DNA of 64,000 bases from Thermodesulfovibrionales bacterium. GTDB lineage: Bacteria; Nitrospirota; Thermodesulfovibrionia; Thermodesulfovibrionales; SM23-35. The DNA is taken from the NCBI GenBank assembly GCA_031082155.1, contig JAVHLL010000002.1:65206-129205 (forward strand), in the 5' to 3' direction. Below the pieces are notes generated by a model, which saw only the letters and a list, made by a program, of their open reading frames with translations, had not been told where the DNA came from and searched no databases. Every line of letters starts with the position of its first letter. The stretch's first letter is position 1. Below, in pieces: positions 10,764 to 62,861 of this stretch. The position numbers were made by a program, and so were the translations under genes.

Positions 10764-11813
10764 ATGCGCCTTTTCAAGAAAAAAACCCTGACAGGGCTAT
10801 CCCGTACGTGCGGCTGAGCAGCGAAAATTGGTCCGTCGGATCTGGCGGAAGCATTAAAAGCGCTTACTCCTTCACAGGATCCTAACCTTCTTGTCGGCTT
10901 CAATACTGCCGATGATGCGGCAGTGTACCGGCTCTCGGATGAGATAGCCTTTATCAGTACTGTTGATTTCATTACCCCGCCGGTGGATGATCCGTATTGG
11001 TTTGGACAAATTGCTGCAGCAAATTCCCTTTCGGATGTTTACGCAATGGGCGGAAAACCTCTTACTGCCCTGAACCTCGTCATGTTTCCTCCAAAGAAAC
11101 TTGACAAGAGCGTTTTGAAGGAAATACTCCATGGGGGGAATGACAAAGTCCTTGAATCCGGTGCTTCTATGGCTGGAGGACATTCTGTGGACGACAATGA
11201 GCCAAAGTATGGTCTTGCTGTTACAGGAATCGTCCATCCCGATAAAATACTGACAAACTGCGGGGCCCGGGAAGGCGATGTTTTGATTCTCACAAAACCA
11301 TTAGGCACCGGGGTCCTGTTTAATGCGTGCAGATCAGGAAAACTGTCATTCAACGAACTGGAAATACTCTTGCCTCAGGTGGCCTCGCTGAATAAAAAAT
11401 CTCTCGATATTGCACGGAGTTTTGACATCCATTCATGTACTGACATTACCGGGTTTGGTATTGTAGGACATTCGTGGGAGATGGCAGCAGGGAGTAGAGT
11501 GCAGATAGACCTTTTCTATAATGAACTGCCGTTTTATCCTCACGCGCTTGAAATGTATCGGAAAGGCGAAACCACTGGTAGCAATAAAGCAAATAGAAAA
11601 CTTTCAGAAGGCCGTCTGGAGATAGCCGCAAAATTGACGAAGGAGGAGGTAGAATTGCTCTTTGATCCGCAAACATCCGGTGGTCTTCTCCTGTCTGTTC
11701 CAGAGTCTCAGTCACAGAAGATGATGAGCGAAATGAAAACCGCCGGTATAGACACTATTGCAAAAATCGGCGAAGTGATAGCAAATCCGAATCCTTGTAT
11801 CAGAGTTATATAG
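10764..11813 (+). CDS. selD: selenide, water dikinase SelD, selenocysteine-containing (in-frame TGA at 10815-10817)
   Basis: ATG 10764 is in frame with track ORF 10923-11813. The product reads MRLFKKKTLTGLSRTCG-U-AAKIGPSDL...DPNLLVGFNTADDAAVY. The TGA sits exactly where E. coli SelD has the catalytic Cys (GxGCKI). Confidence 0.85.
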
Positions 11814-51393: not shown

Positions 51394-53313
51394 TTAATGC
51401 AAAACGTGCTCGGTAATATATTCTTCCTGCTCGGTCTCATTTTTCAGTAGTATCCTTATATCCCCTACCCGTCGTGTAACCTGAACAAAATCGAGATAGT
51501 TGAGAAAGTGGATGGCATATTTACTTCCAACTCCGCAACACTGTTTGAATTCCTTAACAGTCATCCCGGATTTCGTACCAAAGAATAATTTTAATTGTTC
51601 TACTATTTTCTTGAATACCGATGATGCGAGATAGAGTGAATCGTTAATTCTTATCAGTAATCCCTGTTTTGTGAGAATTTTCATAATATCCGATGACTTG
51701 CCCGGTTCAATAAGGAGTGACCGACAGATTTCTTCTCTTAGTGGAGGACGACATCCTGCCTTCTCAATAATTGCAAGGACTCTGTTTTTAAGTTCATTGT
51801 CCTCCTGTGATAATAAGGTATTGAATGAGGAAAGCCTTGCAATATCTCTCTCTATAATTAATTCCGGTAATTTGGCAACGATGAAGTCAAAGAACTTTGG
51901 TTGCATATTCAGGCAACTTCTGAGTTCCTCTTTCGGCATTCCGGCTTTGAGGGGATTTCTTTTATGGAAATATATCAGCGCACTTTTCGCGAGCTCTCCA
52001 ATACGGTGAAAAATATTTTTATGCATCAACAAATCGCCGTTCATGAGAATACTACCATTTTTCCTGAGTTCTGTAATAGCATTGTGAATAACCGGGATAT
52101 CTGCATGAATCCAGCCTTCAATGAAAGGAGCAGATATTCCTTGGATACCTGAACGCATTACTTTTGCTTCGATTTTTTCTGTCAGTGAACCGCGCTCCAG
52201 AACAGGCAGGCTTTCAAGATTTTTTCTATGGCTCATTTTATAAGAAGTAGAATCAAGGACCACTCCGCCGCCTATGGTATCAAGCGGTGAAAATCTTCTG
52301 ATTATAAATCTGTCGCCTGACATGACTATAACCGGTTCCTGAAGCCTGAACTGGCAATACCATGATTCACCCGGCGCCATCTTTTTCTTTTCGTATAAAA
52401 TAACCCTCGCCATGTTTTCCGTGGTTCCGATATGGAGATGCACAATATCCCTGTTCTTCAACTCCGGCGCATTGGGAAGGAGTTTCAATTTTGCATCAAT
52501 CACAGCTGAAGGGATGAACCTACCGGGCATAACTACTGCATCCCCCCTTTTTAATGCCTCTTTCTCAACACCCTGAAGGTTAATTGCAACTCTTTGCCCC
52601 GCACAGGCTTTTTCTATGGACTTGCCATGACTATGCAGGCCTCGCACTTTACTTTTAATATTGCTCGGAAGAATATTTACTTCATCATTTAAGGAGATGA
52701 ATCCTGAAACAGCAGTACCTGTTACCACAGTTCCAAACCCTTTTAAGGTAAAAACCCTGTCTATGGGTAAGCGGAAAATGCCCTTTACAGACTTTGGATC
52801 AACTGTGAAAGCAACTGCCCTGATCTTATCTTTGAGGATGTCAATATTCAGCATGGTCTTCGAAGAGACAGGAACAATCTGTGCATTTTCAAGGAATGAG
52901 CCCGCAACAAAGGCCCTGACATCTTCCTTTACCAGATCGAGCCATTCATCGTCTACAATATCTACCTTTGTTATAGCGATAATACCCGTTTTGATTCCCA
53001 GTAAATTACAGATATGAAGGTGTTCCCTGCTTTGCGGCATGACTCCTTCGTCCGCATCGATAACGAGAAGAACCATATCAATTCCGCTCGCTCCTGCAAG
53101 CATATTCCTGATCAGGCGTTCATGTCCCGGCACATCAACTATGCCCACGGTAAGGCCATCAGGATATCTCAAATCAGCAAAACCGAGATCAATCGTTATA
53201 CCTCGTTCTTTTTCTTCCTTGAGACGGTCGGGATCTATCCCGGTGAGGGCTTTTACAAGGGCACTCTTGCCATGATCGATATGTCCTGCTGTTCCGAGAA
53301 TTCTGTAATGCAT
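51394..53313 (-). CDS. selB: selenocysteine-specific elongation factor SelB
   Basis: From ATG 53313 the product reads [46 protein letters not shown]...[12 protein letters not shown]...TKVD. A long winged-helix C-terminal half follows, for 639 aa in total. Confidence 0.9.
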
Positions 53314-53339
53314 GTTTTTCTTTTGGAAGAAATGTTTTT

Positions 53340-53434
53340 TGGAGAAGGGAAGTGGGAATCGAACCCACCATGAGCTTTTCTTCACTCATGCACTGGTTTT
53401 GCAGACCAGGTGAGGCCCCAGCCCCCTACCCTCC
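53340..53434 (-). tRNA. tRNA-Sec-like tRNA (8/5 acceptor/T, long variable arm) with GCA (Cys) anticodon and U73
   Basis: The reverse complement is GGAGGGTAGGGGGCTGGGGCCTCACCTGGTCTGCAAAACCAGTGCATGAGTGAAGAAAAGCTCATGGTGGGTTCGATTCCCACTTCCCTTCTCCA. Acceptor GGAGGGUA/UUCCCUUC, T arm GUGGG-UUCGAUU-CCCAC, anticodon arm CUGGU-CUGCAAA-ACCAG, variable stem CAUGAG/CUCAUG, and CCA encoded. Confidence 0.8.
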
Positions 53435-53653
53435 AGTTGAATTATTATATTTATTATTACAATATGTCAAATAGATTAATTCAATATAATACGAATAATA
53501 TATTTAATTCATTAATGTCATCCCTTAATTCTATGTATATTTTCTAATATATAGTTATTATCTATTTTAATTATGATGATTAATTATGTTTAAAATACAA
53601 TATCAGAATTTAAAGCAACCATACTTAAACAACAACTTCAAAGGAGGATTTAT

Positions 53654-54949
53654 ATGTCCAAGGATTATAAGCAGATGTGGAGTGATCTTGAGATAAACCT
53701 TGATGCCCATGACGGGCTACTGGGTGTTCTCTCGGATGCGTATACGAACATTTATCTTTCACAAAAAAACCGTCCGGAAGGGATGAAATACTTCGATTTT
53801 GTCATTTCTGAAGTGCATGGCCTCAGGATAGAAGAGATTGTCGAGGCAAAGAAACAGGGTAGAAAGGTTATCGGTACTTTTTGTGTTTATGTGCCGGAGG
53901 AACTGATTCTAGCGGTGGACGGGGTCGATATCGGTCTCTGTGCCGGCGCCGATGTAGGTACTGACGAGGCAGAGAAATACATCCCCAGGAATACCTGTGC
54001 GCTCATCAAGGCATTCATGGGTTTCAAGCTCGCCGGACTCTGCCCCTATGTCCAGACTGCCGATCTTATCGTTGGCGAGACAACCTGCGACGGAAAGAAA
54101 AAGGCCTATGAACTGTTTAATGAAATGACGAAAGGTAAAGTTTATGTAATGGAAATTCCGAATAAAAAGGGAGAAGACGGCAAAACCCTCTGGTTGAACG
54201 AGGTTCAACGATTCGCTGCAAAACTTGAAGGAATAAGCGGCAAAAAGATAACTCCCGAAAAGCTCAAAGAAGCATCAAAGGTTGTAAATGAAAAGAGGAA
54301 AGCCCTTCAACGTCTGGCTTCTCTCCGTTCGGCAGACCCTTCTCCCATTTCAGGGCTTGATGCCCTGCTTGTGAATCAGGTTGCCTTCTATGATGATCCG
54401 TTGCGTTTTACTGCAAAGGCGAATGAACTCTGTGATGAACTGACGGAAAGGGTCAAAACAGGCAAAGGAGTTTCGGCGAAGGGAAGTCCCCGAATTCTAA
54501 TCTCCGGTTCGCCTATGGCGATTCCGAACTGGAAGATACATGCAATTGTTGAAGGAAGCGGCGCAACGATTGTCGGTGAAGAGTCATGCGTAGGGGAGAG
54601 GAACTTTGCGTCACTCATGGATGAAAACTTTTCCTCTCTGAATGAGGGAATGCGGAATATCGCAGACCGCTATCTCACCATAAACTGCGCCTGCTTTACT
54701 CCTAATGACGAGCGGCTCACTGATATCGAAACCATTGCGAAAAGAGTAAAAGCAGACGGCATTCTTCACTATGCCATACAGTTCTGCACGCCTTACATGA
54801 TTGAAGCGACAAAAGTGAAGAAAGTTACAGACAAAATGAAAATGCCTTTTCTTCGTATTGAAACAGACTATAGTATGGAAGACATGGGACAGCTCAAAAC
54901 AAGGATTGAAGCATTCCTTGAGATGATAGGGAACGGCACAAGAGTGTGA
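53654..54949 (+). CDS. 2-hydroxyacyl-CoA dehydratase-family / double-cubane-cluster (DCCP, YjiM-like) reductase
   Basis: 431 aa. KVIGTFCVYVPEELILA...GLCAGAD...PRNTCALIKAF...GETTCDGKKKAY... shows the conserved Cys pattern of the HgdB/BcrC/YjiM family. A strong AAAGGAGG RBS lies upstream. Confidence 0.75.
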   Translation: MSKDYKQMWSDLEINLDAHDGLLGVLSDAYTNIYLSQKNRPEGMKYFDFVISEVHGLRIEEIVEAKKQGRKVIGTFCVYVPEELILAVDGVDIGLCAGADVGTDEAEKYIPRNTCALIKAFMGFKLAGLCPYVQTADLIVGETTCDGKKKAYELFNEMTKGKVYVMEIPNKKGEDGKTLWLNEVQRFAAKLEGISGKKITPEKLKEASKVVNEKRKALQRLASLRSADPSPISGLDALLVNQVAFYDDPLRFTAKANELCDELTERVKTGKGVSAKGSPRILISGSPMAIPNWKIHAIVEGSGATIVGEESCVGERNFASLMDENFSSLNEGMRNIADRYLTINCACFTPNDERLTDIETIAKRVKADGILHYAIQFCTPYMIEATKVKKVTDKMKMPFLRIETDYSMEDMGQLKTRIEAFLEMIGNGTRV

Positions 54950-55689
54950 GAATTGGCGGTATTGATATTGGCTCAAGGTACATCAAATATGTGCTCCTTG
55001 AGGGTAATTCAATCCTCGATTTCAAAAAGAGGGAGACAGGACATAATCCGTTGTCGGTATGTAAAGAACTCCTTACAGTAAACCGTCCGGAAAAAATTGT
55101 CGCCACAGGGTATGGAAGATATTTGCTTGAAGTATTCGGTGATATCAGGACGATAACGGAAATAAAAGCGGTAGCAAAAGGGGTAAAGGCAATTTTTCCC
55201 CTTTGCAGGACAATTATCGATATAGGGGGACAGGACACGAAGGTAATCAGTCTGTCAGATCAGGGATCAGTCGTGAATTTTGAGATGAACGATCGTTGTG
55301 CAGCAGGAACGGGGAGATTTATCGAGATCATGTCCAGAGCGCTCGGTTATGATCTCGATCATTTCGGGGCTTCCTGCAACAGCAGGTCCGGTAATGTTAA
55401 AATAAACAGCATGTGTACGGTCTTTGCTGAATCAGAGGTTATCAGTCTTATTGCGAAAGGTGAAAAGAGAGAAGTAATTGCGTATTCCATCCATGATTCG
55501 ATTGCGAGTAAAGTCATCTCTATGGTAAAGCGGATAGATATTCAGGATGACATTGTTTTCGCAGGAGGATGCGCCCGGAACCCATGTCTCAGGAGGATAC
55601 TGGAAGAACGATTACAAAAAACGCTTTATGTTCATGAAAATCCCTATATGCACGCTGCGTATGGCGCGGCGCTCTATGCGGATATATAA
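54946..55689 (+). CDS. BcrAD/BadFG/HgdC-type ATPase activase (YjiL-like)
   Basis: GTG start overlaps the previous stop (GTGA). IGGIDIGSRYIKYV...DIGGQDTKVI...MNDRCAAGTGRFIE...CTVFAESEVIS is the ASKHA fold with the bridging-[4Fe-4S] Cys motifs. Confidence 0.85.
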   Translation: MRIGGIDIGSRYIKYVLLEGNSILDFKKRETGHNPLSVCKELLTVNRPEKIVATGYGRYLLEVFGDIRTITEIKAVAKGVKAIFPLCRTIIDIGGQDTKVISLSDQGSVVNFEMNDRCAAGTGRFIEIMSRALGYDLDHFGASCNSRSGNVKINSMCTVFAESEVISLIAKGEKREVIAYSIHDSIASKVISMVKRIDIQDDIVFAGGCARNPCLRRILEERLQKTLYVHENPYMHAAYGAALYADI

Positions 55690-55694
55690 TTGCA

Positions 55695-56738
55695 ATGGAG
55701 ATTTCACCAAAATTAGCAGAAAAAGCGCGTGCTGCAGGTTGAGCTTCAAAGATAAGTCCGTCGGACTTATCAGATATACTCGACGGCTTGCCTGCCAGCA
55801 AGGATCCGAATCTTCTTGTCGGGATTGAAACATCGGACGACGCAGGAGTATACCGCCTCACCCCTGAGATAGCCCTGATACAGACCCTTGATTTCTTCAC
55901 GCCGATAGTGAATGATCCCTATGATTTTGGTCGTATCGCTGCAGCCAATTCATTAAGCGATGTATATTCTATGGGAGGGAAGCCCCTTACAGCGATGAAT
56001 ATCGTCTGCTTTCCTATCAAAGAAATGGACAAGTCGGTTCTCCGGTCAATTCTTGAAGGAGGACTTGAGGTCATTCATAAATCCGGGGCCGTTATGGTTG
56101 GCGGGCATAGCGTGGAAGATCCGGAACTTAAATACGGACTCTCCGTAACTGGTGTTGTTCATCCTGAGCATTTCCTGAAAAATTCCGGAGCCAGACCGGG
56201 AGATATGCTTGTTCTTACCAAACCTTTGGGCACCGGTGTGCTTGCTACAGCATTGAAGGGACGTCTCCTTGATGATCGGACGACCAGCGTACTGACTGAT
56301 TTGATGGCAACCCTGAACAAAGATGCAGCGGAAGTTATGTCTGAAACAGGCGTAAATGCCTGTACCGATATAACGGGGTTCGGCCTTATCGGACATGCGC
56401 TCGAAATGGCCAAGGCCAGCAACGTCGGTATGCGCATTTATGCCGATAAAGTCCCGGTTATCCCGGAGGCCAAAAGCTTTGCCGCGATGGGAATGATTCC
56501 GGCCGGAAGTCATCTGAACCGTAAATTCTGTGCTCATCATCTCGACATCAGCCCTTCTATAAATCCTATTCTTTTGGATCTCTTTTCGGATGCGCAGACA
56601 TCAGGCGGTCTTCTCATCTCTGTTCCTGCACAAAAAATTCATACTCTTGTCCAGGGACTTCTTGAAAGGGAAACTCCCGCAGCCCACGTTATAGGAGAGG
56701 TGATCTCTGGACCGTCAGGAGTCATCCAGATACGGTAA
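55695..56738 (+). CDS. selD: selenide, water dikinase SelD, selenocysteine-containing (in-frame TGA at 55740-55742)
   Basis: ATG 55695 is in frame with track ORF 55788-56738. The product reads MEISPKLAEKARAAG-U-ASKISPSDL...DPNLLVGIETSDDAGVY. A perfect hairpin at 55751-55771 lies downstream of the TGA. Confidence 0.9.
55751..55771 (+). promoter_or_regulatory. SECIS-like hairpin of selD
   Basis: GATAAGTCC-GTC-GGACTTATC is a perfect 9-bp stem beginning 8 nt after the UGA. Confidence 0.6.
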
Positions 56739-56744
56739 ATATTC

Positions 56745-57011
56745 ATGACAGTATATGCAGTCATAACCTTTCATAACACGCATTTTGCGCTCAAGGCTAA
56801 AAAAGTCCTCGAAAAAAACGGAAAAACCGTCGAGACAATCCCCGTTCCCCGTGAATTCAGTTCAGAGTGCGGGTTCTGCTGTAAGGTACCGTGGGACGAG
56901 AGAGATATGGCTGATAAAATTCTCAGGGAGCATGATGTACAAGTAGAACATATCTACCGCTGGGAAAGAGACGATGATAAAGAGAGGAAAAATAAATTTA
57001 CGTTTGTATAA
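56745..57011 (+). CDS. DUF3343 (putative S/Se carrier-like) protein
   Basis: 88 aa. AVITFHNTHFALKAKKVLEKNG...IPVPREFSSECGFCC matches the recalled DUF3343 pattern, which is commonly found next to yedF. Confidence 0.65.
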   Translation: MTVYAVITFHNTHFALKAKKVLEKNGKTVETIPVPREFSSECGFCCKVPWDERDMADKILREHDVQVEHIYRWERDDDKERKNKFTFV

Positions 57012-57026
57012 AAGAGGAGGCAAGGT

Positions 57027-57638
57027 ATGGCTTATCAGATTGATGCAAGAGGATTGCCCTGTCCTCAGCCTGTTTTAAAAACAAAGGAAGCCCTTGGGCG
57101 GGCAAAAGGGTCATCTTTGATTGTTATTATCGACAATGAGGCCTCAAGGGATAATGTTATAAGATTTCTTGAGAATTCCGGAGTTACTCTTGAGAAAGTC
57201 GAGACCAGAGGAAATGATTTTTTTATTCATACAAAGGAAACAGCATACAGTGTCTCGTCCGGGATTAAACCTGAAGACTATCCATGTGCAGTTCCCTCGG
57301 GAGCCGGATCTGCTCTTTTCATTAATAAGGACCGTATCGGACATGGGAGCGATGAACTGGGAACAAACCTTATGAAGGCTTTTATCACGACAATAAAAGA
57401 CCTCTCTGTTCAACCGAAAACCATCTGTTTCATGAACAGCGGGGTAAAGCTGACGGTGAAAGAGGCGGCAACCCTTCCCTATCTGAAAGAATTAGAAGAG
57501 AAAGGGATAGAAATGCTGGTTTGCGGTACCTGTCTCAGTTACTTTAACCTCAAAGAACAAATCGGCGTCGGAAAAATATCCAATATGTACGATATATCGG
57601 AAACCATGCTGAAGTCTTCTAAAGTAATAACCCTATAG
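57027..57638 (+). CDS. yedF: selenium metabolism protein YedF (TusA/SirA-like + DsrE-like domains)
   Basis: N-terminus IDARGLPCPQPVLKTKEAL (the CPxP motif of the TusA family), and a C-terminal half with the DsrE-like ...VCGTCLSYF... segment. At 203 aa it is typical of YedF. Confidence 0.8.
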   Translation: MAYQIDARGLPCPQPVLKTKEALGRAKGSSLIVIIDNEASRDNVIRFLENSGVTLEKVETRGNDFFIHTKETAYSVSSGIKPEDYPCAVPSGAGSALFINKDRIGHGSDELGTNLMKAFITTIKDLSVQPKTICFMNSGVKLTVKEAATLPYLKELEEKGIEMLVCGTCLSYFNLKEQIGVGKISNMYDISETMLKSSKVITL

Positions 57639-57643
57639 GGTCT

Positions 57644-58810
57644 ATGCCAAGCTGGGTTATGGGTACAAAAGTTATCTACTTTGACAATGCTGCAACATCC
57701 GGCAGGAAACCTGTAACGGTTTCGCACGCCATATGCGACTGCCTCAAACACGCAAACGCGAATCCCGGGAGATCAGGACATTCCCTTTCGGTGAAGGCTG
57801 CCGAGATAATTTATTCGTGCCGTGAAATTCTTGGTGAATTATTCAACTTCCCTAAAACAGAAAATATAGTCCTGACAAAAAATGCAACCGAAGCATTGAA
57901 TCTCGCCCTCTATGGCGGGCTGAAGAACGGCTGTGAAGTCATAACCACCTCGATGGAACACAATTCTGTGCTGAGGCCCCTGAATCATCTGCACAACAAG
58001 GGCATCATCCGTTTATATATCTTAAGTGCTGATGGAAATGGTGTGGTCCATCCGAAGCAGATAAAGGAAGCCATTACTGAAGACACAAGTCTCATTGTCG
58101 TCACTTCTGCCTCTAATGTCACCGGTACAAAGATGGATTTGCAGGGTATATATCACGCTGCACAAGAAGCCGGAGTAAAAATGCTTGTTGACGGCGCACA
58201 GGGAGCCGGAGCACTGAGAATAGATCTGAAAGAAACACCATTCGATTTTCTTGCGGTTACTGGACACAAGCATCTCTTCGGCCCTCAGGGCACCGGCGCC
58301 CTGATTATAAAGAATGCAGATGATCTGGACTCCTTCATGCGAGGCGGCACCGGAAGTCAGTCGGAAATGACAATACATCCTGATTTTCCACCCGACAAAT
58401 ATGAGGCAGGAACTCTGAATACTCCTGGATACGCAGGTCTGGTTGCAGGGATACGGTTCATTCTTGATGAAGGCCTGGAGAAAATCGTTGGATATGAACA
58501 TGAGCTGACAGAATATCTTCTCGGAAAACTGGCAGATATCGAGGAGATACAACTATATGCACCCGATGCAGACCGTGTTGCCACGGTATCGTTTAATATT
58601 CAGGGCACACCTCCTTCTGATGTTGCGTATTTTCTGGACAGGGAATGGGGCATATGTGCAAGATCCGGTCTCCATTGCGCTCCGGAAGCGCATAAAACAC
58701 TGGGCACGTTTTCAGGAGGAACAATCAGGTTTTCTTTTTCATTTTTTAATACGAAAGAGGAAATTGACAGTGCAATAGAGGCGCTGAAGGATTTTGTGAA
58801 ACACAGATAG
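57644..58810 (+). CDS. class V aminotransferase-fold cysteine desulfurase / selenocysteine lyase-like enzyme
   Basis: IYFDNAATS..., TGHKHL (PLP Lys) and active-site ARSGLHCAPEAH. Confidence 0.85.
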   Translation: MPSWVMGTKVIYFDNAATSGRKPVTVSHAICDCLKHANANPGRSGHSLSVKAAEIIYSCREILGELFNFPKTENIVLTKNATEALNLALYGGLKNGCEVITTSMEHNSVLRPLNHLHNKGIIRLYILSADGNGVVHPKQIKEAITEDTSLIVVTSASNVTGTKMDLQGIYHAAQEAGVKMLVDGAQGAGALRIDLKETPFDFLAVTGHKHLFGPQGTGALIIKNADDLDSFMRGGTGSQSEMTIHPDFPPDKYEAGTLNTPGYAGLVAGIRFILDEGLEKIVGYEHELTEYLLGKLADIEEIQLYAPDADRVATVSFNIQGTPPSDVAYFLDREWGICARSGLHCAPEAHKTLGTFSGGTIRFSFSFFNTKEEIDSAIEALKDFVKHR

Positions 58811-58893
58811 ATGCAAGAGGCTTACAGCCTGTTGCATCTATTGTCCAATAATTGACTATGCATTAATACCTTAAGATATATCAGGCATCTATT

Positions 58894-60771
58894 ATGGAAG
58901 ATTCTCCGGATATCCAGACAGAAAAAAAGAAGGTTATCGCCAAGGATTTCAGTCATCTCAATATACACGAGAACCTCAAGACTGAGTTTTCGGTCATTTC
59001 CGGAAAATGCATACAATGCAAGCTTTGTCAGAAAGAGTGCGCGTTCCTCGGCAAATATGGAAAACCAAAGGATATCACCGATTCGTACGATCCCGGAAAC
59101 ACTGCACATCAGGGAATGCCGTTTGAATGCAGTCTCTGTCAGCTCTGCGCATCTGTCTGTCCGGTAAAGATCAACCCGGCACGCATGTTTCTTGAAATGA
59201 GACGTGAAACCGTCAGAAAAGGAAAAGGCGATTATCCTGAACATAGCGTCATTCTTGGATATGAAAAGCGTGGCGCCTCGAAACGGTATTCATACTATGC
59301 GCTTCCGGATAGCTGTGACACTGTCTTCTTCCCCGGCTGCACTCTACCGGGTACCCGTCCCAATCAGGTGCTGAAACTTTATGAACATCTGAAGAAAACT
59401 ATACCTTCTCTTGGCATTGTGCTTGATTGTTGCACAAAGCCCTCGCATGACCTTGGAAGAGAGCGGTTCTTTCAGGCAATGTTCCAGGAGATGAAGGGGT
59501 ATCTGGCAAGAAATGGCATACGCACTGTCATTGTAGCCTGCCCGAACTGTTATAAGATTTTTCAACAATATGGGAGAGATGAACTTTCTGTTGTTACCGT
59601 TTATGAAGTTATGGCAGAAAAAGGTCTTCCTGAAACCGGCCAGGTGGCGGGAAGTATTACTGTTCATGACTCCTGCGGAGTAAGATTCGAAGAAAATATT
59701 CACGAATCGGTACGAAACATAGTAAAGAAAAGAGGCTTGCAGATCGACGAAATGAAGCACAGCGGGAAAAAAACGCTCTGCTGCGGGGAAGGAGGGTCAG
59801 TCGGTTTCCTGAATCCTGACCTATCCAGGAAATGGAGTTTCCTGAGAAAAACTGAAGCGGACGGGAGAAAAATGGTTGCATATTGTGCGGGATGCGCCAA
59901 CCTCCTCAATTCGATCACCCCCACGAGCCATATTCTGGACCTCACCTTTGAACCGGAAAACGCTGTTGCAGGAACAGTGAAGGTTTCCAAAGCTCCATTC
60001 ACATACTTCAACCGTCTCAGGCTAAAAAAGCATTTTAAAAACACACTCCTTGCTACAAAAACGAGAGAGAGAACATTCTTTGCAGGTGAAGAAAAGGGGA
60101 AAGTACAATGGTTAAAGCGTATAATAATTCTTTTCATCATTCTGTCTGCTATCCTTGCCATACGGTTTACCGATGCAACCCAGTACCTTGAACAGGACAC
60201 CCTCAGAGGCCTGATTCAGGGTTATGGTGTACTGGCTCCGGTTATCTATATGCTGATATATACTGTGGCGCCTGCCTTGTTTTTACCCGGACTTCCCCTC
60301 ACTATTGCAGGAGGCATCCTCTTCGGACCCTTATGGGGAGTTGTCTATACTATTACAGGCGCCACTCTGGGCGCCTGCGTGGCTTTTCTTATATCACGAT
60401 ATGTTGCCAGGGAATGGTTAGCAAACAAATGCAGAAGCCCCAGATGGAGAAGACTTGACAAAGGTGTTGAGAAGCACGGCTGGAAAATTGTTGCGTTTAC
60501 GCGCCTCATACCAATATTTCCTTTTAATCTTCTGAACTATGCATTCGGACTTACAAAGATACCATTTCTGCACTATGCCGTCACAACATTTCTCTTTATG
60601 CTGCCGGCCTGCATTGCTTTTATAGTCTTCTCGAGTTCTCTTCTGGACATCTTGAAAGGGAAGATATCCCCTATTTTCCTTATAGGGGTTGGTCTTATTG
60701 TGCTGGTTTTGTTACTTCCTTATGTTTACAGACGTTACAAGGCAAAAAAAGGCGAATCAGAACCTCTCTGA
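58894..60771 (+). CDS. fusion protein: 2x[4Fe-4S] ferredoxin + CCG (HdrD/GlpC-like) domains + DedA/TVP38 membrane domain
   Basis: CIQCKLCQKEC and CSLCQLCASVCP, then CCG-type motifs FFPGCTLPG...LDCCTKP and HDSCGVR...LCCGEGG. The C-terminal ~220 aa are polytopic with LPGLPLTIAGGILFGPLWG...FTRLIPIFPFNLLNYAFGLT, the DedA/SNARE-associated signature. Confidence 0.75.
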   Translation: MEDSPDIQTEKKKVIAKDFSHLNIHENLKTEFSVISGKCIQCKLCQKECAFLGKYGKPKDITDSYDPGNTAHQGMPFECSLCQLCASVCPVKINPARMFLEMRRETVRKGKGDYPEHSVILGYEKRGASKRYSYYALPDSCDTVFFPGCTLPGTRPNQVLKLYEHLKKTIPSLGIVLDCCTKPSHDLGRERFFQAMFQEMKGYLARNGIRTVIVACPNCYKIFQQYGRDELSVVTVYEVMAEKGLPETGQVAGSITVHDSCGVRFEENIHESVRNIVKKRGLQIDEMKHSGKKTLCCGEGGSVGFLNPDLSRKWSFLRKTEADGRKMVAYCAGCANLLNSITPTSHILDLTFEPENAVAGTVKVSKAPFTYFNRLRLKKHFKNTLLATKTRERTFFAGEEKGKVQWLKRIIILFIILSAILAIRFTDATQYLEQDTLRGLIQGYGVLAPVIYMLIYTVAPALFLPGLPLTIAGGILFGPLWGVVYTITGATLGACVAFLISRYVAREWLANKCRSPRWRRLDKGVEKHGWKIVAFTRLIPIFPFNLLNYAFGLTKIPFLHYAVTTFLFMLPACIAFIVFSSSLLDILKGKISPIFLIGVGLIVLVLLLPYVYRRYKAKKGESEPL

Positions 60772-61566
60772 GTTATGAGAGAGATACCCTTTTATTTCAT
60801 CCTCGGCAGTTTTGAATGCAAATTCATGATAATATCTTTTTAAAGCCGCTTCATCAAATATTGCTTTTCCGTCTTTGTCCTGATAATTTTTACTTAACAC
60901 ACATGCAAGCTGTTCTTCTCCTTCTTTCCAGTTCTGGCCTAGGATATCCTCTATTTCCTTTCCTGAATGCACGTTCCGGAGTGGCATGAAAAGTTCCAGA
61001 TCAAAGCTTTTCAGAAATTCGCTATAGGCATCCAGGGCAACCCCTGTCTGGTTGACTTTCACCTTGCCGTCGTGAGACTCCCTTTCACCTCCAATTACAA
61101 CAGTACAATTCAGCAGTTTTGCTAAAGGGATCCTGATGGCATGAAAATACAGATGGCATCCTAAACAAGGAGTAAAATAACCGTATTTTTTAAACAGTTC
61201 CGTGGTATATCTACCGCAGAGTTTCCACCAGAATCGCGGAGAACCGAGCACAATTGCGCTGAATACCCTTATGTCCTCTTTTTCAAGCTTCTCCTTCATA
61301 AGTTCTGTCTTCCCGAAAGGAATTTTCCAGTTGCCGTATTCCGTTCCGGTAAATGCGATAGTCGGAACAATAGCCCTGATGTCTCGAACCCTGCAGGCCC
61401 TGATGACTGCTGCGACACTGTCTCTCCCGGCTATTTCTGCAATCGCAACATTCTCTATTCCCCGTATTTCTGCTCTCGTTTCATCAGAAAACATCCATTC
61501 GGGAAACTCTGCCACAAGTTCAGGTTTGTTTGCCAGGATTTCTAAAAGTTCATTCTCTTTGTTCAT
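60757..61566 (-). CDS. uncharacterised protein, possible PP-loop-like (adenine nucleotide alpha-hydrolase) fold
   Basis: 269 aa. AIAEIAGRDSVAAV resembles a degenerate SGGxDS PP-loop, and there is a CLGCHLY motif. The assignment is tentative. Confidence 0.4.
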   Translation of the reverse strand: MNKENELLEILANKPELVAEFPEWMFSDETRAEIRGIENVAIAEIAGRDSVAAVIRACRVRDIRAIVPTIAFTGTEYGNWKIPFGKTELMKEKLEKEDIRVFSAIVLGSPRFWWKLCGRYTTELFKKYGYFTPCLGCHLYFHAIRIPLAKLLNCTVVIGGERESHDGKVKVNQTGVALDAYSEFLKSFDLELFMPLRNVHSGKEIEDILGQNWKEGEEQLACVLSKNYQDKDGKAIFDEAALKRYYHEFAFKTAEDEIKGYLSHNSERF

Positions 61567-62861
61567 AGGGTTAAAGAGGTGTAATCTCCGGGATAATACG
61601 GTTGATCGACCGGGGTATCCATAAGCCCCTGGAGTTTTGACCTGTCAAGGAAATTAAGGATTAGATACAATAATTCCTTCCCCTTTACGATACCGAGAGC
61701 CCCTTTCGCGCAGCTTATTTCATTGTAGTGAGTGACATCGTCTTTCCGGACATATTTCCCGACCATTGTGAGCGGCACTGTCTCACCGGTATGGATCATG
61801 GCACCGGAGCTTGCAGTAGAATGGTCAGCAGTGATGACCAGCAGGTTCTCCTTGTCCGGTGCGATTTCGCCTACTGCAACAGACATTGCACGGTCAATCG
61901 CCTCTATTACCTCTTTTTTGTACCACGGGTTTTTTGTATGGCCTGCTTCATCAGGCATTTTTGTATGAACATGAATAAAATCATACTCATATGCATCTTT
62001 TGCAAGCCGGAGGCGATATTTTAGGTCTTCCTCAACGTTCCCTGTATCCTTGACTTTCATGAGGTCCATCCCCAATTCATTGCAGAGCCCCCAGTAAATC
62101 GGTCCGGATGAAATGGACAAGGCCTTCATACCCCACTTTTCCCTGAAAGGGATCTGTTTTTTCTTTCTCCCGGCTCTCTGGGTAACAAGGGCATTGACAG
62201 GGAGGAGATTCGCTGTTCTTCTCTGTTTATTGATATCATGGCCCGACAATACCCGATAACACCATACGAGGTATTCATTTAACGTCGCTGCCGTATTTTT
62301 CGAAGACTGTGTAAAACGCTTCTGCTGGACCGGAAAAACCTTTATAACTTCCCTTCCCTCATATATAGGGTCAGAATCGGTTATTTTTTCAGATACATTC
62401 CCTTTCAGGAGAAGAAACCCGCGTATACCCTTCGCATGAAACAGTTCAAAGTGGATTCCGTTCTTCTGAAAACTCCGTATCGATTCCTTCAGCACACGCC
62501 CCTCTTCGTTCCCGAGTTCAGGACACCCATAGGTCAGGACAAGATTGTCTCCGCGTTCTTCAACAGAACATAAATGACAGAGGAGCGCTACATTTTTCTC
62601 TCCCACCGGGATGCCTGCTCCCTTTGCTTCGATATACCCTCTTCCCGGGAACTCTTCCCCTTCATACCCGAAGATTAAAAAGTGCGCGGTCTCGCTCGAC
62701 ATGGGAACGCCCTGGTAAAAGCTGTGGTACAGCCCGTTCATCCCGATCGATGCAAGATAATCCATATGGGGAGTATATGCCGCATAAAGGGGAGTCCTTC
62801 CTTCAAAACAGTCCTGTCCCCTGTCCCCCAGACCATCCAGTATGACGAGAATACACCGCAT
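61563..62861 (-). CDS. cofactor-independent phosphoglycerate mutase-like metalloenzyme (ApgM/alkaline-phosphatase superfamily)
   Basis: MRCILVILDGLGDRG...TP.MD.LA..G..G...HVHTKMPDEAGH...ITADHST... matches the recalled archaeal-type iPGM pattern. Confidence 0.7.
   Translation of the reverse strand: MRCILVILDGLGDRGQDCFEGRTPLYAAYTPHMDYLASIGMNGLYHSFYQGVPMSSETAHFLIFGYEGEEFPGRGYIEAKGAGIPVGEKNVALLCHLCSVEERGDNLVLTYGCPELGNEEGRVLKESIRSFQKNGIHFELFHAKGIRGFLLLKGNVSEKITDSDPIYEGREVIKVFPVQQKRFTQSSKNTAATLNEYLVWCYRVLSGHDINKQRRTANLLPVNALVTQRAGRKKKQIPFREKWGMKALSISSGPIYWGLCNELGMDLMKVKDTGNVEEDLKYRLRLAKDAYEYDFIHVHTKMPDEAGHTKNPWYKKEVIEAIDRAMSVAVGEIAPDKENLLVITADHSTASSGAMIHTGETVPLTMVGKYVRKDDVTHYNEISCAKGALGIVKGKELLYLILNFLDRSKLQGLMDTPVDQPYYPGDYTSLTL

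Follow-up and report, generated by a model that had tools for sequence, protein, structure and literature searches.

Here we present an analysis of a fusion gene at positions 58894-60771 (+) of a 64,000-nucleotide stretch of DNA from a Thermodesulfovibrionales bacterium (contig JAVHLL010000002.1 of assembly GCA_031082155.1, positions 65,206 to 129,205), hereafter called the window. The gene is a single uninterrupted frame of 625 codons whose product, P0001, joins an iron-sulfur (Fe-S) module with two ferredoxin-type and two cysteine-rich CCG motifs to a membrane domain of the DedA superfamily (Pfam VTT). An initial annotation made from the sequence alone had claimed such a fusion at this site, and the open reading frame (ORF), Pfam searches and a direct motif scan all confirm it. 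The features of the gene and of the selenium cluster that it closes are collected in Table 1.

A conserved fusion of an Fe-S/CCG module to a DedA domain

The fusion family is real and is widely conserved in anaerobic bacteria. Full-length relatives of about 590-650 aa, 61-93% identical and with all domains present, make up more than 120 clusters, and 564 relatives were found in metagenome contigs. The initial annotation had asked for a check of the domain junction at 60000-60100, where a sequencing frameshift might have joined two genes. Near relatives are represented by contigs from three studies (X1 record 4; X3 record 18; X2 records 11 and 12), used here in place of the source organism's own reads; these contigs span this junction free of gaps and, together with the full-length clusters and the metagenome relatives, rule out such an artefact. 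The source organism itself was not re-observed, the best public run holding at most 0.26 of the sampled words of the stretch, and the match in RNA libraries, a single 255-nt contig, is no proof of transcription. As a rule, the two modules are indeed encoded as separate proteins, but the fusion is a large conserved family and no one-off. Databases name its members "VTT domain-containing protein" or "YdjX/Fe-S oxidoreductase". A literature search on DedA with heterodisulfide reductase returned no study of the family, and Lin et al. 2015 mention neither DedA nor Hdr-like genes.

The N-terminal 390 residues are predicted to form a complete cytoplasmic module of the HdrD/DsrK type that carries two [4Fe-4S] relay motifs as well as two CCG sites. 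Pfam placed Fer4_8/Fer4_17 at residues 38-93 (Fer4_8, 34 bits against a cut-off of 27) and two CCG stretches, the better at 255-337 (PF02754, 40.2 bits against 20.6). The motif scan located CxxCxxCxxxC motifs at residues 39-49 and 79-89 and found both CCG sites complete, with five cysteines each in the form C-Xn-CC-Xn-C-XX-C. Aligning 35 sequences from both fusion clades (described below) showed every one of the 18 cluster-ligand cysteines to be invariant. In the AlphaFold model the module has a predicted local distance difference test (pLDDT) score above 90 (82.3 for the whole model, with a predicted template-modelling score, pTM, of 0.67), and its nearest fold neighbours among solved structures are EtfD of Mycobacterium smegmatis (9ojn), LutA and HdrB. 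No signal peptide was found in P0001; this and the K/R-rich stretches flanking the membrane domain (positive-inside rule) predict a cytoplasmic location for the Fe-S part.

Like HdrD/HdrB/HdrC, DsrK, TmcB, HmcF, GlpC, LutA and TfrB, P0001 has a two-[4Fe-4S] domain followed by two five-cysteine CCG motifs, and its N-terminal module matches the fold of HdrB and LutA, but it reaches no curated cut-off of any Hdr, Dsr, Tmc, Glp or Lut equivalog. The DsrK, TmcB, HmcF, HdrC and TfrB models gave at best 12.6-57.9 bits against cut-offs of 270-750, and weak sub-threshold profile matches were seen to TfrB, LdhH, TmcB, DsrK, GlcF and HdrC. The best profile match of residues 36-391 is the NCBIfam family NF045663, "diclust_near_Sec" (E 2e-73, profile positions 303-671 of 759), which P0001 scores below the cut-off (247.7 bits against 530) and whose match stops at residue 391. 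Long members of that family (854 aa) directly follow a stand-alone VTT gene and precede a rhodanese; compared with the family, P0001 lacks the N-terminal flavin/NAD domain and has the DedA domain as a C-terminal extra. Systems of the HdrD/DsrK type have a cytochrome b partner (HdrE, DsrM), in place of which P0001 has the covalently attached DedA domain, and no HdrE/DsrM-type partner gene was found in the cluster of the window.

The eukaryotic scramblases TMEM41B and VMP1 have their closest bacterial relatives in the COG0398 branch of the DedA superfamily; to our knowledge, no function has been demonstrated for the bacterial members of this branch (YdjX/YdjZ type). The C-terminal 220 residues of P0001 are assigned to this YdjX/TVP38 type by residue criteria and by the annotation of relatives as "YdjX (TVP38/TMEM64 family)". 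According to Todor et al. 2023 (PMC10127716), the first re-entrant helix of COG0398 proteins is without acidic residues and the second has lost one of two basic residues; in P0001, D and E are both absent from segment 463-482, and R537 is the only Arg of segment 535-549. The polytopic DedA/SNARE-associated domain of the initial annotation is borne out by PF09335 at residues 464-580 (95.7 bits against 33.9). Hydrophobic segments lie at about 408-428, 444-503, 557-580 and 592-612, and DedA re-entrant-loop motifs at about 463-480 and 536-552, with invariant loop residues. The model for the undecaprenyl phosphate (UndP) flippase UptA of COG0586, NF052604, gave 21.8 bits against a cut-off of 250. 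Identity between the two fusion clades is 42-52% in the VTT half and 26-30% in the reductase half, and this better conservation of the membrane domain argues against its being a mere anchor.

Within a membrane helix, Cys573 (60610-60612) is invariant in the reductase-first fusions; it was considered as a universal relay residue and rejected, since it is missing from the permuted and stand-alone VTT forms. Additionally, forms of 810-842 aa (P0082, P0089, P0093, L093 and L099) have an extra polytopic membrane domain after VTT, for which there was no Pfam match.

Table 1. Features of the fusion gene and of the cluster upstream of it (positions in the window)
Feature	Position	Strand	Basis
Whole fusion gene, 625 aa (P0001)	58894-60771	+	Open frame; full-length relatives
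Ferredoxin-like domain, two CxxCxxCxxxC (residues 39-89), predicted two [4Fe-4S] relay clusters	59008-59160	+	Pfam Fer4_8/Fer4_17; motif scan; 8 Cys invariant
CCG motif 1 (C149, C179, C180, C216, C219)	59338-59550	+	Pfam; motif scan; invariant Cys; fold like LutA, HdrB
CCG motif 2 (C261, C296-C297-G, C331, C334)	59674-59895	+	Pfam CCG 255-337; motif scan
Linker, helices and K/R-rich stretch before first membrane helix (residues 335-405)	59896-60108	+	
VTT/DedA domain, COG0398 (YdjX/TVP38) type, residues about 406-615	60109-60738	+	Pfam PF09335; invariant columns; VTT comparison
Double-cubane-cluster reductase (DCCP), head of cluster	53654-54949	+	NF040772, 477 bits
ATP-dependent activase of DCCP	54946-55689	+	TIGR00241, 221 bits
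SelD, in-frame TGA (selenocysteine) at 55740-55742	55695-56738	+	
DUF3343 / Se_S_carrier protein	56745-57011	+	PF11823
YedF (TusA and DsrE-like domains)	57027-57638	+	TIGR03527, 206 bits
Cysteine desulfurase / SclA-like, 83 bp upstream of fusion	57644-58810	+	TIGR01977, 423 bits; SclA model 313 bits, below cut-off

Four arrangements of the reductase and VTT modules

The two modules were found together in four arrangements. In type A, the reductase precedes VTT as in P0001; its close clade (at least about 45% identical) occurs in Thermodesulfovibrionales and Desulfobacterota, and its distant clade (33-39% identical) comprises proteins of 555-612 aa. Type B has the permuted order VTT-Fer4-CCG in a single ORF of 617-647 aa and is found in Desulfogranum marinum DSM 2058, Desulforhopalus sp. 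IMCC35007 and a metagenome-assembled genome (MAG) of Desulfohalobiaceae. In type C the modules are encoded by adjacent genes, a 229-aa VTT gene lying 69 bp upstream of an 854-aa Pyr_redox-Fer4-CCG gene (L040, L041, L044). Among the top 120 longer relatives of the stand-alone VTT, more than 100 are of type D, in which VTT is fused to a flavoprotein disulfide reductase; fusion to such a reductase is the commonest for COG0398 (PMC10127716).

A maximum-likelihood tree of the reductase modules placed those of type B as sister to the clade of P0001 (support 94/86) and the unfused module that adjoins selD and yedF within the distant clade. Comparison of the VTT domains put those of type B in a different subgroup, which implies that the reductase swapped its membrane partner and stayed attached to a VTT domain. 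The pairing of reductase and VTT has been selected repeatedly: it exists in both orders and in the form of neighbouring genes, and aerobes have a non-homologous flavoprotein disulfide reductase where the Fe-S module would be. In Desulfogranum marinum (L045, 9571-11881) and in Desulforhopalus (L016), a gene for a 140-aa rhodanese ends 8 bp before the permuted fusion. A fusion of DUF3047 to VTT (P0130) is also present in the database.

The closest parallel in the literature is the TVP38/TMEM64-FAD-dependent oxidoreductase (Todor et al. 2023, PMC10127716), in which a similar membrane domain is combined with a cytoplasmic two-electron disulfide-type reductase. P0001 differs from it in having oxygen-sensitive Fe-S/CCG sites and not flavin adenine dinucleotide (FAD)/NAD(P)H, in placing the reductase first, and in its anaerobic hosts. 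Pfam found no flavoprotein domain (Pyr_redox_2, Pyr_redox_dim) in P0001, such fusions being related to the stand-alone VTT only, and the reductase-first Fe-S/CCG variant is not mentioned in PMC10127716. P0001 represents an anaerobic Fe-S counterpart to the COG0398-flavoprotein disulfide reductase fusion, with the domain order reversed. That two unrelated disulfide-type reductases are fused to the COG0398 domain, a flavoprotein in aerobes and an Fe-S/CCG protein, in both orders, in anaerobes, argues that the job of this domain involves thiol/disulfide or sulfane chemistry at the membrane.

HdrD-like proteins are usually attached to a membrane subunit, and the type-E succinate:quinone reductases are anchored by CCG proteins. 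With this background, P0001 might be a quinone-linked electron-entry module comparable to EtfD, HdrDE or DsrMK, in which the Fe-S/CCG part exchanges electrons with menaquinone and DedA serves mainly as anchor and quinone access. EtfD of M. smegmatis (PDB 9ojn), itself a membrane-anchored HdrD-like Fe-S/CCG protein that connects the electron transfer flavoprotein (ETF) to the respiratory chain, is the top match of P0001 among solved structures both in sequence and in fold (Foldseek E 8.9e-11 over 462 columns; 16% identity); its membrane part, however, is not DedA. A heme-binding membrane domain was rejected on the 35-sequence alignment, which has no conserved pair of histidines for heme b, only H560 being near-invariant in a membrane helix. 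Moreover, conservation is higher in VTT than in the reductase, with every DedA signature residue retained, and in aerobes the same kind of VTT is fused to soluble flavoprotein reductases that use NAD(P)H and need no access to quinone. We therefore hold a quinone-linked role to be very unlikely.

Selenium and arsenosugar-type gene contexts

In the window, the fusion gene is the last of a same-strand cluster that runs DCCP-activase-SelD-DUF3343-YedF-desulfurase, with selB upstream on the opposite strand. A promoter and terminator scan of 53300-61700 yielded nothing above shuffled expectation. A second selD (10764-11813, TGA at 10815-10817) lies outside the cluster, between genes for an adenine deaminase and a patatin-like protein; both SelD of the window are probably selenoproteins, given the in-frame TGA at the active-site position in each. 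Downstream, a 269-aa minus-strand ORF (60757-61566) without Pfam or NCBIfam match converges on the fusion gene and overlaps its 3' end by 15 bp; its conservation beside apgM in relatives indicates that it is associated with that gene, not with the selenium genes.

This setting had suggested a dedicated selenium importer-reductase, in which DedA would import selenite or another selenium species and the reductase would turn thiol-bound selenium straight into selenide for SelD, the protein replacing the transporter YedE. The position of the gene at the end of the selD-DUF3343-yedF-desulfurase series fits such a role, as does the match of its N-terminal module to "diclust_near_Sec", and no transporter of the YedE/FdhT family was found in the 100%-complete own genome, despite two selD, selB and YedF. 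A link between DedA and selenite, mentioned in the initial annotation, does exist in the literature: Ledgham et al. 2005, as cited in PMC10127716, connected a DedA protein of Ralstonia (Cupriavidus) metallidurans CH34 with the uptake of selenite on genetic evidence. That protein is of the same superfamily as P0001 and stands alone, without a redox module. On the other hand, the COG0398 subtype is without the residues tied to proton-driven transport (PMC10127716).

Gene neighbourhoods were counted within 10 kb of the fusion at those metagenome loci, 43 in all, where the flanking DNA amounted to 8 kb or more. Selenium genes were near only 10 of the 43 (selD at 4, yedF at 6). The co-localisation with selD/yedF seen in the window recurs, in the same or similar form, at five further loci (L002, L009, L028, L089, L123), but is the minority state for the family. 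Additionally, the unfused N-terminal module adjoins selD and yedF at L042 and L043. Rhodanese genes were the most frequent neighbours (16/43); they lie up to about 130 bp upstream of the fusion at L009, L016, L017/L045, L091, L093, L094, L097, L099 and L124, and downstream of a split form at L046. ArsS-like radical SAM genes and genes for transferases like TIGR04283/TIGR04282 were each present at 12 of the loci.

The association with the transferases, named "arsenosugar" enzymes, is tightest in the distant clade, where TIGR04283 lies directly upstream of the fusion at 11 of 11 loci and TIGR04282 directly downstream at nine; a YedF-like gene was found at 10 of these 11, a rhodanese at six, and ArsS or ArsM-ArsS at eight. 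This fixed place between two such transferases speaks against a dedicated selenium importer. Close-clade members have adjoining ArsS-like genes at nine loci (L007, L025, L054, L056, L057, L073, L077, L089, L100). At three composite loci (L073, L077, L089), the fusion occurs together with ArsS, transferases, YedF, DUF3343, desulfurase, SelD and DCCP, so that the cluster of the window appears to be a component of a wider network of modular make-up. One 8.1-kb metagenome contig (L114) has the distant-clade fusion and its GT2 gene duplicated in mirror orientation, probably a palindromic assembly artefact.

DCCP or activase genes were near the fusion at seven of the 43 loci. In both clades, the two recur beside the fusion (L008, L009, L028, L029, L049, L059, L067, L069, L073, L115, L117), and at L008 the fusion is flanked by the double-cubane reductase on one side and the activase on the other. 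The selenium/metalloid context may be a lead to the natural substrate of the double-cubane enzyme class.

Genome-level co-occurrence was examined in 301 Nitrospirota genomes and, independently, in 201 Desulfobacterota genomes. Across these genomes, the fusion tracks the arsenic-sugar-type gene set (TIGR04283) better than it does selenium genes. In Nitrospirota, where matches to P0001 at E <=1e-20 represent the fusion or the stand-alone COG0398 VTT, these matches and TIGR04283 follow an almost identical pattern family by family; within Thermodesulfovibrionales, the P0001-type VTT and TIGR04283 occur together in 32 genomes and are both missing from 42; the VTT is on its own in one genome, and TIGR04283 is on its own in none. 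In Desulfobacterota, TIGR04283 is present in 36 of the 41 genomes with a strong P0001-like match and in 58 of the 160 others (odds ratio 12.7), and in 12 of the 13 with the full reductase-first fusion. The corresponding figures for selD are 38/41 and 147/160, which is no enrichment, and the selenium-specific reading of the initial annotation gains no support at this level. The selD comparison cannot discriminate, because selD is near-universal in both groups (92% of the Desulfobacterota sample; near-universal in Thermodesulfovibrionales and lacking in Nitrospirota families f25, f26 and f28 of the sample). Each fusion-bearing genome examined has selD or selB, a test without power in samples so rich in selD; the seemingly selD-less carriers (G286, G447, G499, G529) all have selB. 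With YedF and the fusion also occurring independently of each other, we consider a dedicated selenium importer-reductase rather unlikely.

These distributions would fit a role of P0001 as a component of an organo-arsenic (arsenosugar/arsenolipid-type) pathway with ArsS/ArsM, TIGR04282 and TIGR04283, in which DedA would flip or scramble a lipid-linked product of GT2, the reductase would keep arsenic or thiol ligands reduced, and the position in a selenium cluster would be secondary. The gene order of the distant clade, the nine close-clade loci with ArsS-like neighbours and the co-occurrence with TIGR04283 in two phyla all fit, and GT2 has weak sub-threshold matches to polyprenyl-phosphate glycosyltransferase models, an enzyme type for which a flippase partner of the DedA type is plausible. 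The own genome does contain such genes: an ArsS-ArsM fusion ORF of 663 aa on contig 1 (L128:5871-10301), whose divergent neighbour encodes an HdrA-like flavoprotein containing several Fe-S motifs, and DUF3047 followed by TIGR04282-like and TIGR04283 genes on contig 36 (L127:7556-9667). The fusion, however, lies apart from them, and a separate paralogue is orthologous to the GT2-adjacent VTT of relatives. This paralogue, a stand-alone 242-aa COG0398 VTT on contig 52 (L021:807-3535, minus), has the gene for a DsbD-like thiol:disulfide transporter (453 aa) on one side and that for a methyltransferase on the other, and its orthologues in relatives (65-67% identical) adjoin TIGR04283/TIGR04282. Its place beside the DsbD-like transporter repeats the thiol-redox theme. 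Furthermore, neither the permuted form of Desulforhopalus nor the close-clade form of a Desulfobacterota MAG is accompanied by TIGR04283, no genes for arsenic resistance were seen beside the fusion, and the function of TIGR04282/TIGR04283 is itself deduced from context only. Taken together, we regard membership in an organo-arsenic pathway as unlikely.

A possible role in sulfane sulfur and selenium reduction

We tentatively favour, as a reading that is possible and somewhat short of probable, that P0001 is a two-part inner-membrane reductase of carrier-bound sulfane sulfur or selenium. The CCG site would use two electrons to cleave a sulfane-type bond, S-S or S-Se, in a persulfide, perselenide, trisulfide or selenotrisulfide held on carriers encoded by the neighbouring genes, namely rhodanese, YedF, DUF3343 and cysteine desulfurase. 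Such chemistry would be analogous to that of DsrK on the DsrC trisulfide, YedF itself being a TusA-DsrE-like fusion. The DedA domain would deliver or remove the membrane-side partner, either a chalcogen species or a lipid-linked intermediate of the TIGR04283 glycosyltransferase, and candidate electron donors would be ferredoxin or the neighbouring ATP-driven double-cubane system. Given the place of the gene in the selD operon, its enzyme would in this genome produce selenide for SelD. Family-wide, P0001 would belong to a broader metalloid network (ArsS/ArsM, TIGR04282/TIGR04283, YedF, rhodanese, DCCP) and not to a selenium-only one. Of the coupling of membrane transport to disulfide or selenosulfide reduction that was first suggested for this protein, the coupled modules and the complete, predicted cytoplasmic HdrB/HdrD-type site are retained; the transport part fits less well with a COG0398 type that is predicted to be a scramblase.

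Several observations weigh against a sulfane sulfur or selenium reductase. At the loci, 11 of the 43 have none of the five associated gene groups within 10 kb, and in a complete 3.6-Mb genome a close-clade homologue sits between ychF and dksA. At the genome level the fusion tracks neither selD, which is not enriched among its carriers as given above, nor YedF; the latter was rejected as an obligate partner, since one genus has YedF but no fusion and one genome (G235) the fusion but no YedF. The link to the transferases is itself looser for the close than for the distant clade, given that the contig-52 VTT is the orthologue of the TIGR04283-adjacent VTTs, and two of three Desulfobacterota genomes checked singly have the fusion without TIGR04283 (the permuted Desulforhopalus form and the close-clade form of the MAG); the co-occurrence statistics, moreover, are not corrected for shared ancestry. 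No electron donor was identified, and the membrane domain shows neither a heme-ligand pattern nor a quinone site. According to PMC10127716, DedA proteins of the COG0398 type are predicted lipid scramblases and not ion transporters, so that a lipid role fits better than chalcogen transport. Finally, the literature search gave no biochemical or genetic data on any family member. A complex prediction for the N-terminal module (residues 20-395) with VTT (400-622) scored 0.00 and was counted neither way.

A more far-reaching version would make the fusion the cytoplasmic-membrane step of an envelope-spanning chalcogen/metalloid relay. In such a relay, DedA would pass sulfane sulfur or selenium, as such or on a lipid-linked carrier, across the membrane, and the HdrB-like site would release it onto rhodanese/YedF, feeding both SelD and an ArsS/TIGR04283 pathway to thio- or seleno-organoarsenic sugars or lipids. 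We regard this as speculative and distinctly unlikely.

The findings presented here that are new are the co-occurrence with TIGR04283 in two phyla without a selD signal, the phylogenetic evidence of partner swapping, and the caveat that close-clade orthology imposes. The family connects two poorly understood gene sets, the YedF/DUF3343/SelD genes of selenium delivery and the "arsenosugar" transferases linked to ArsS, and the existence of cultured carriers of the permuted form (Desulfogranum marinum DSM 2058 and Desulforhopalus sp. IMCC35007) makes experiments feasible. P0001 provides a concrete candidate for the supply of selenide to SelD in anaerobes. If the relay were true, it would give the bacterial COG0398 DedA proteins their first molecular function and the non-cubane clusters of the CCG type a new class of substrate.

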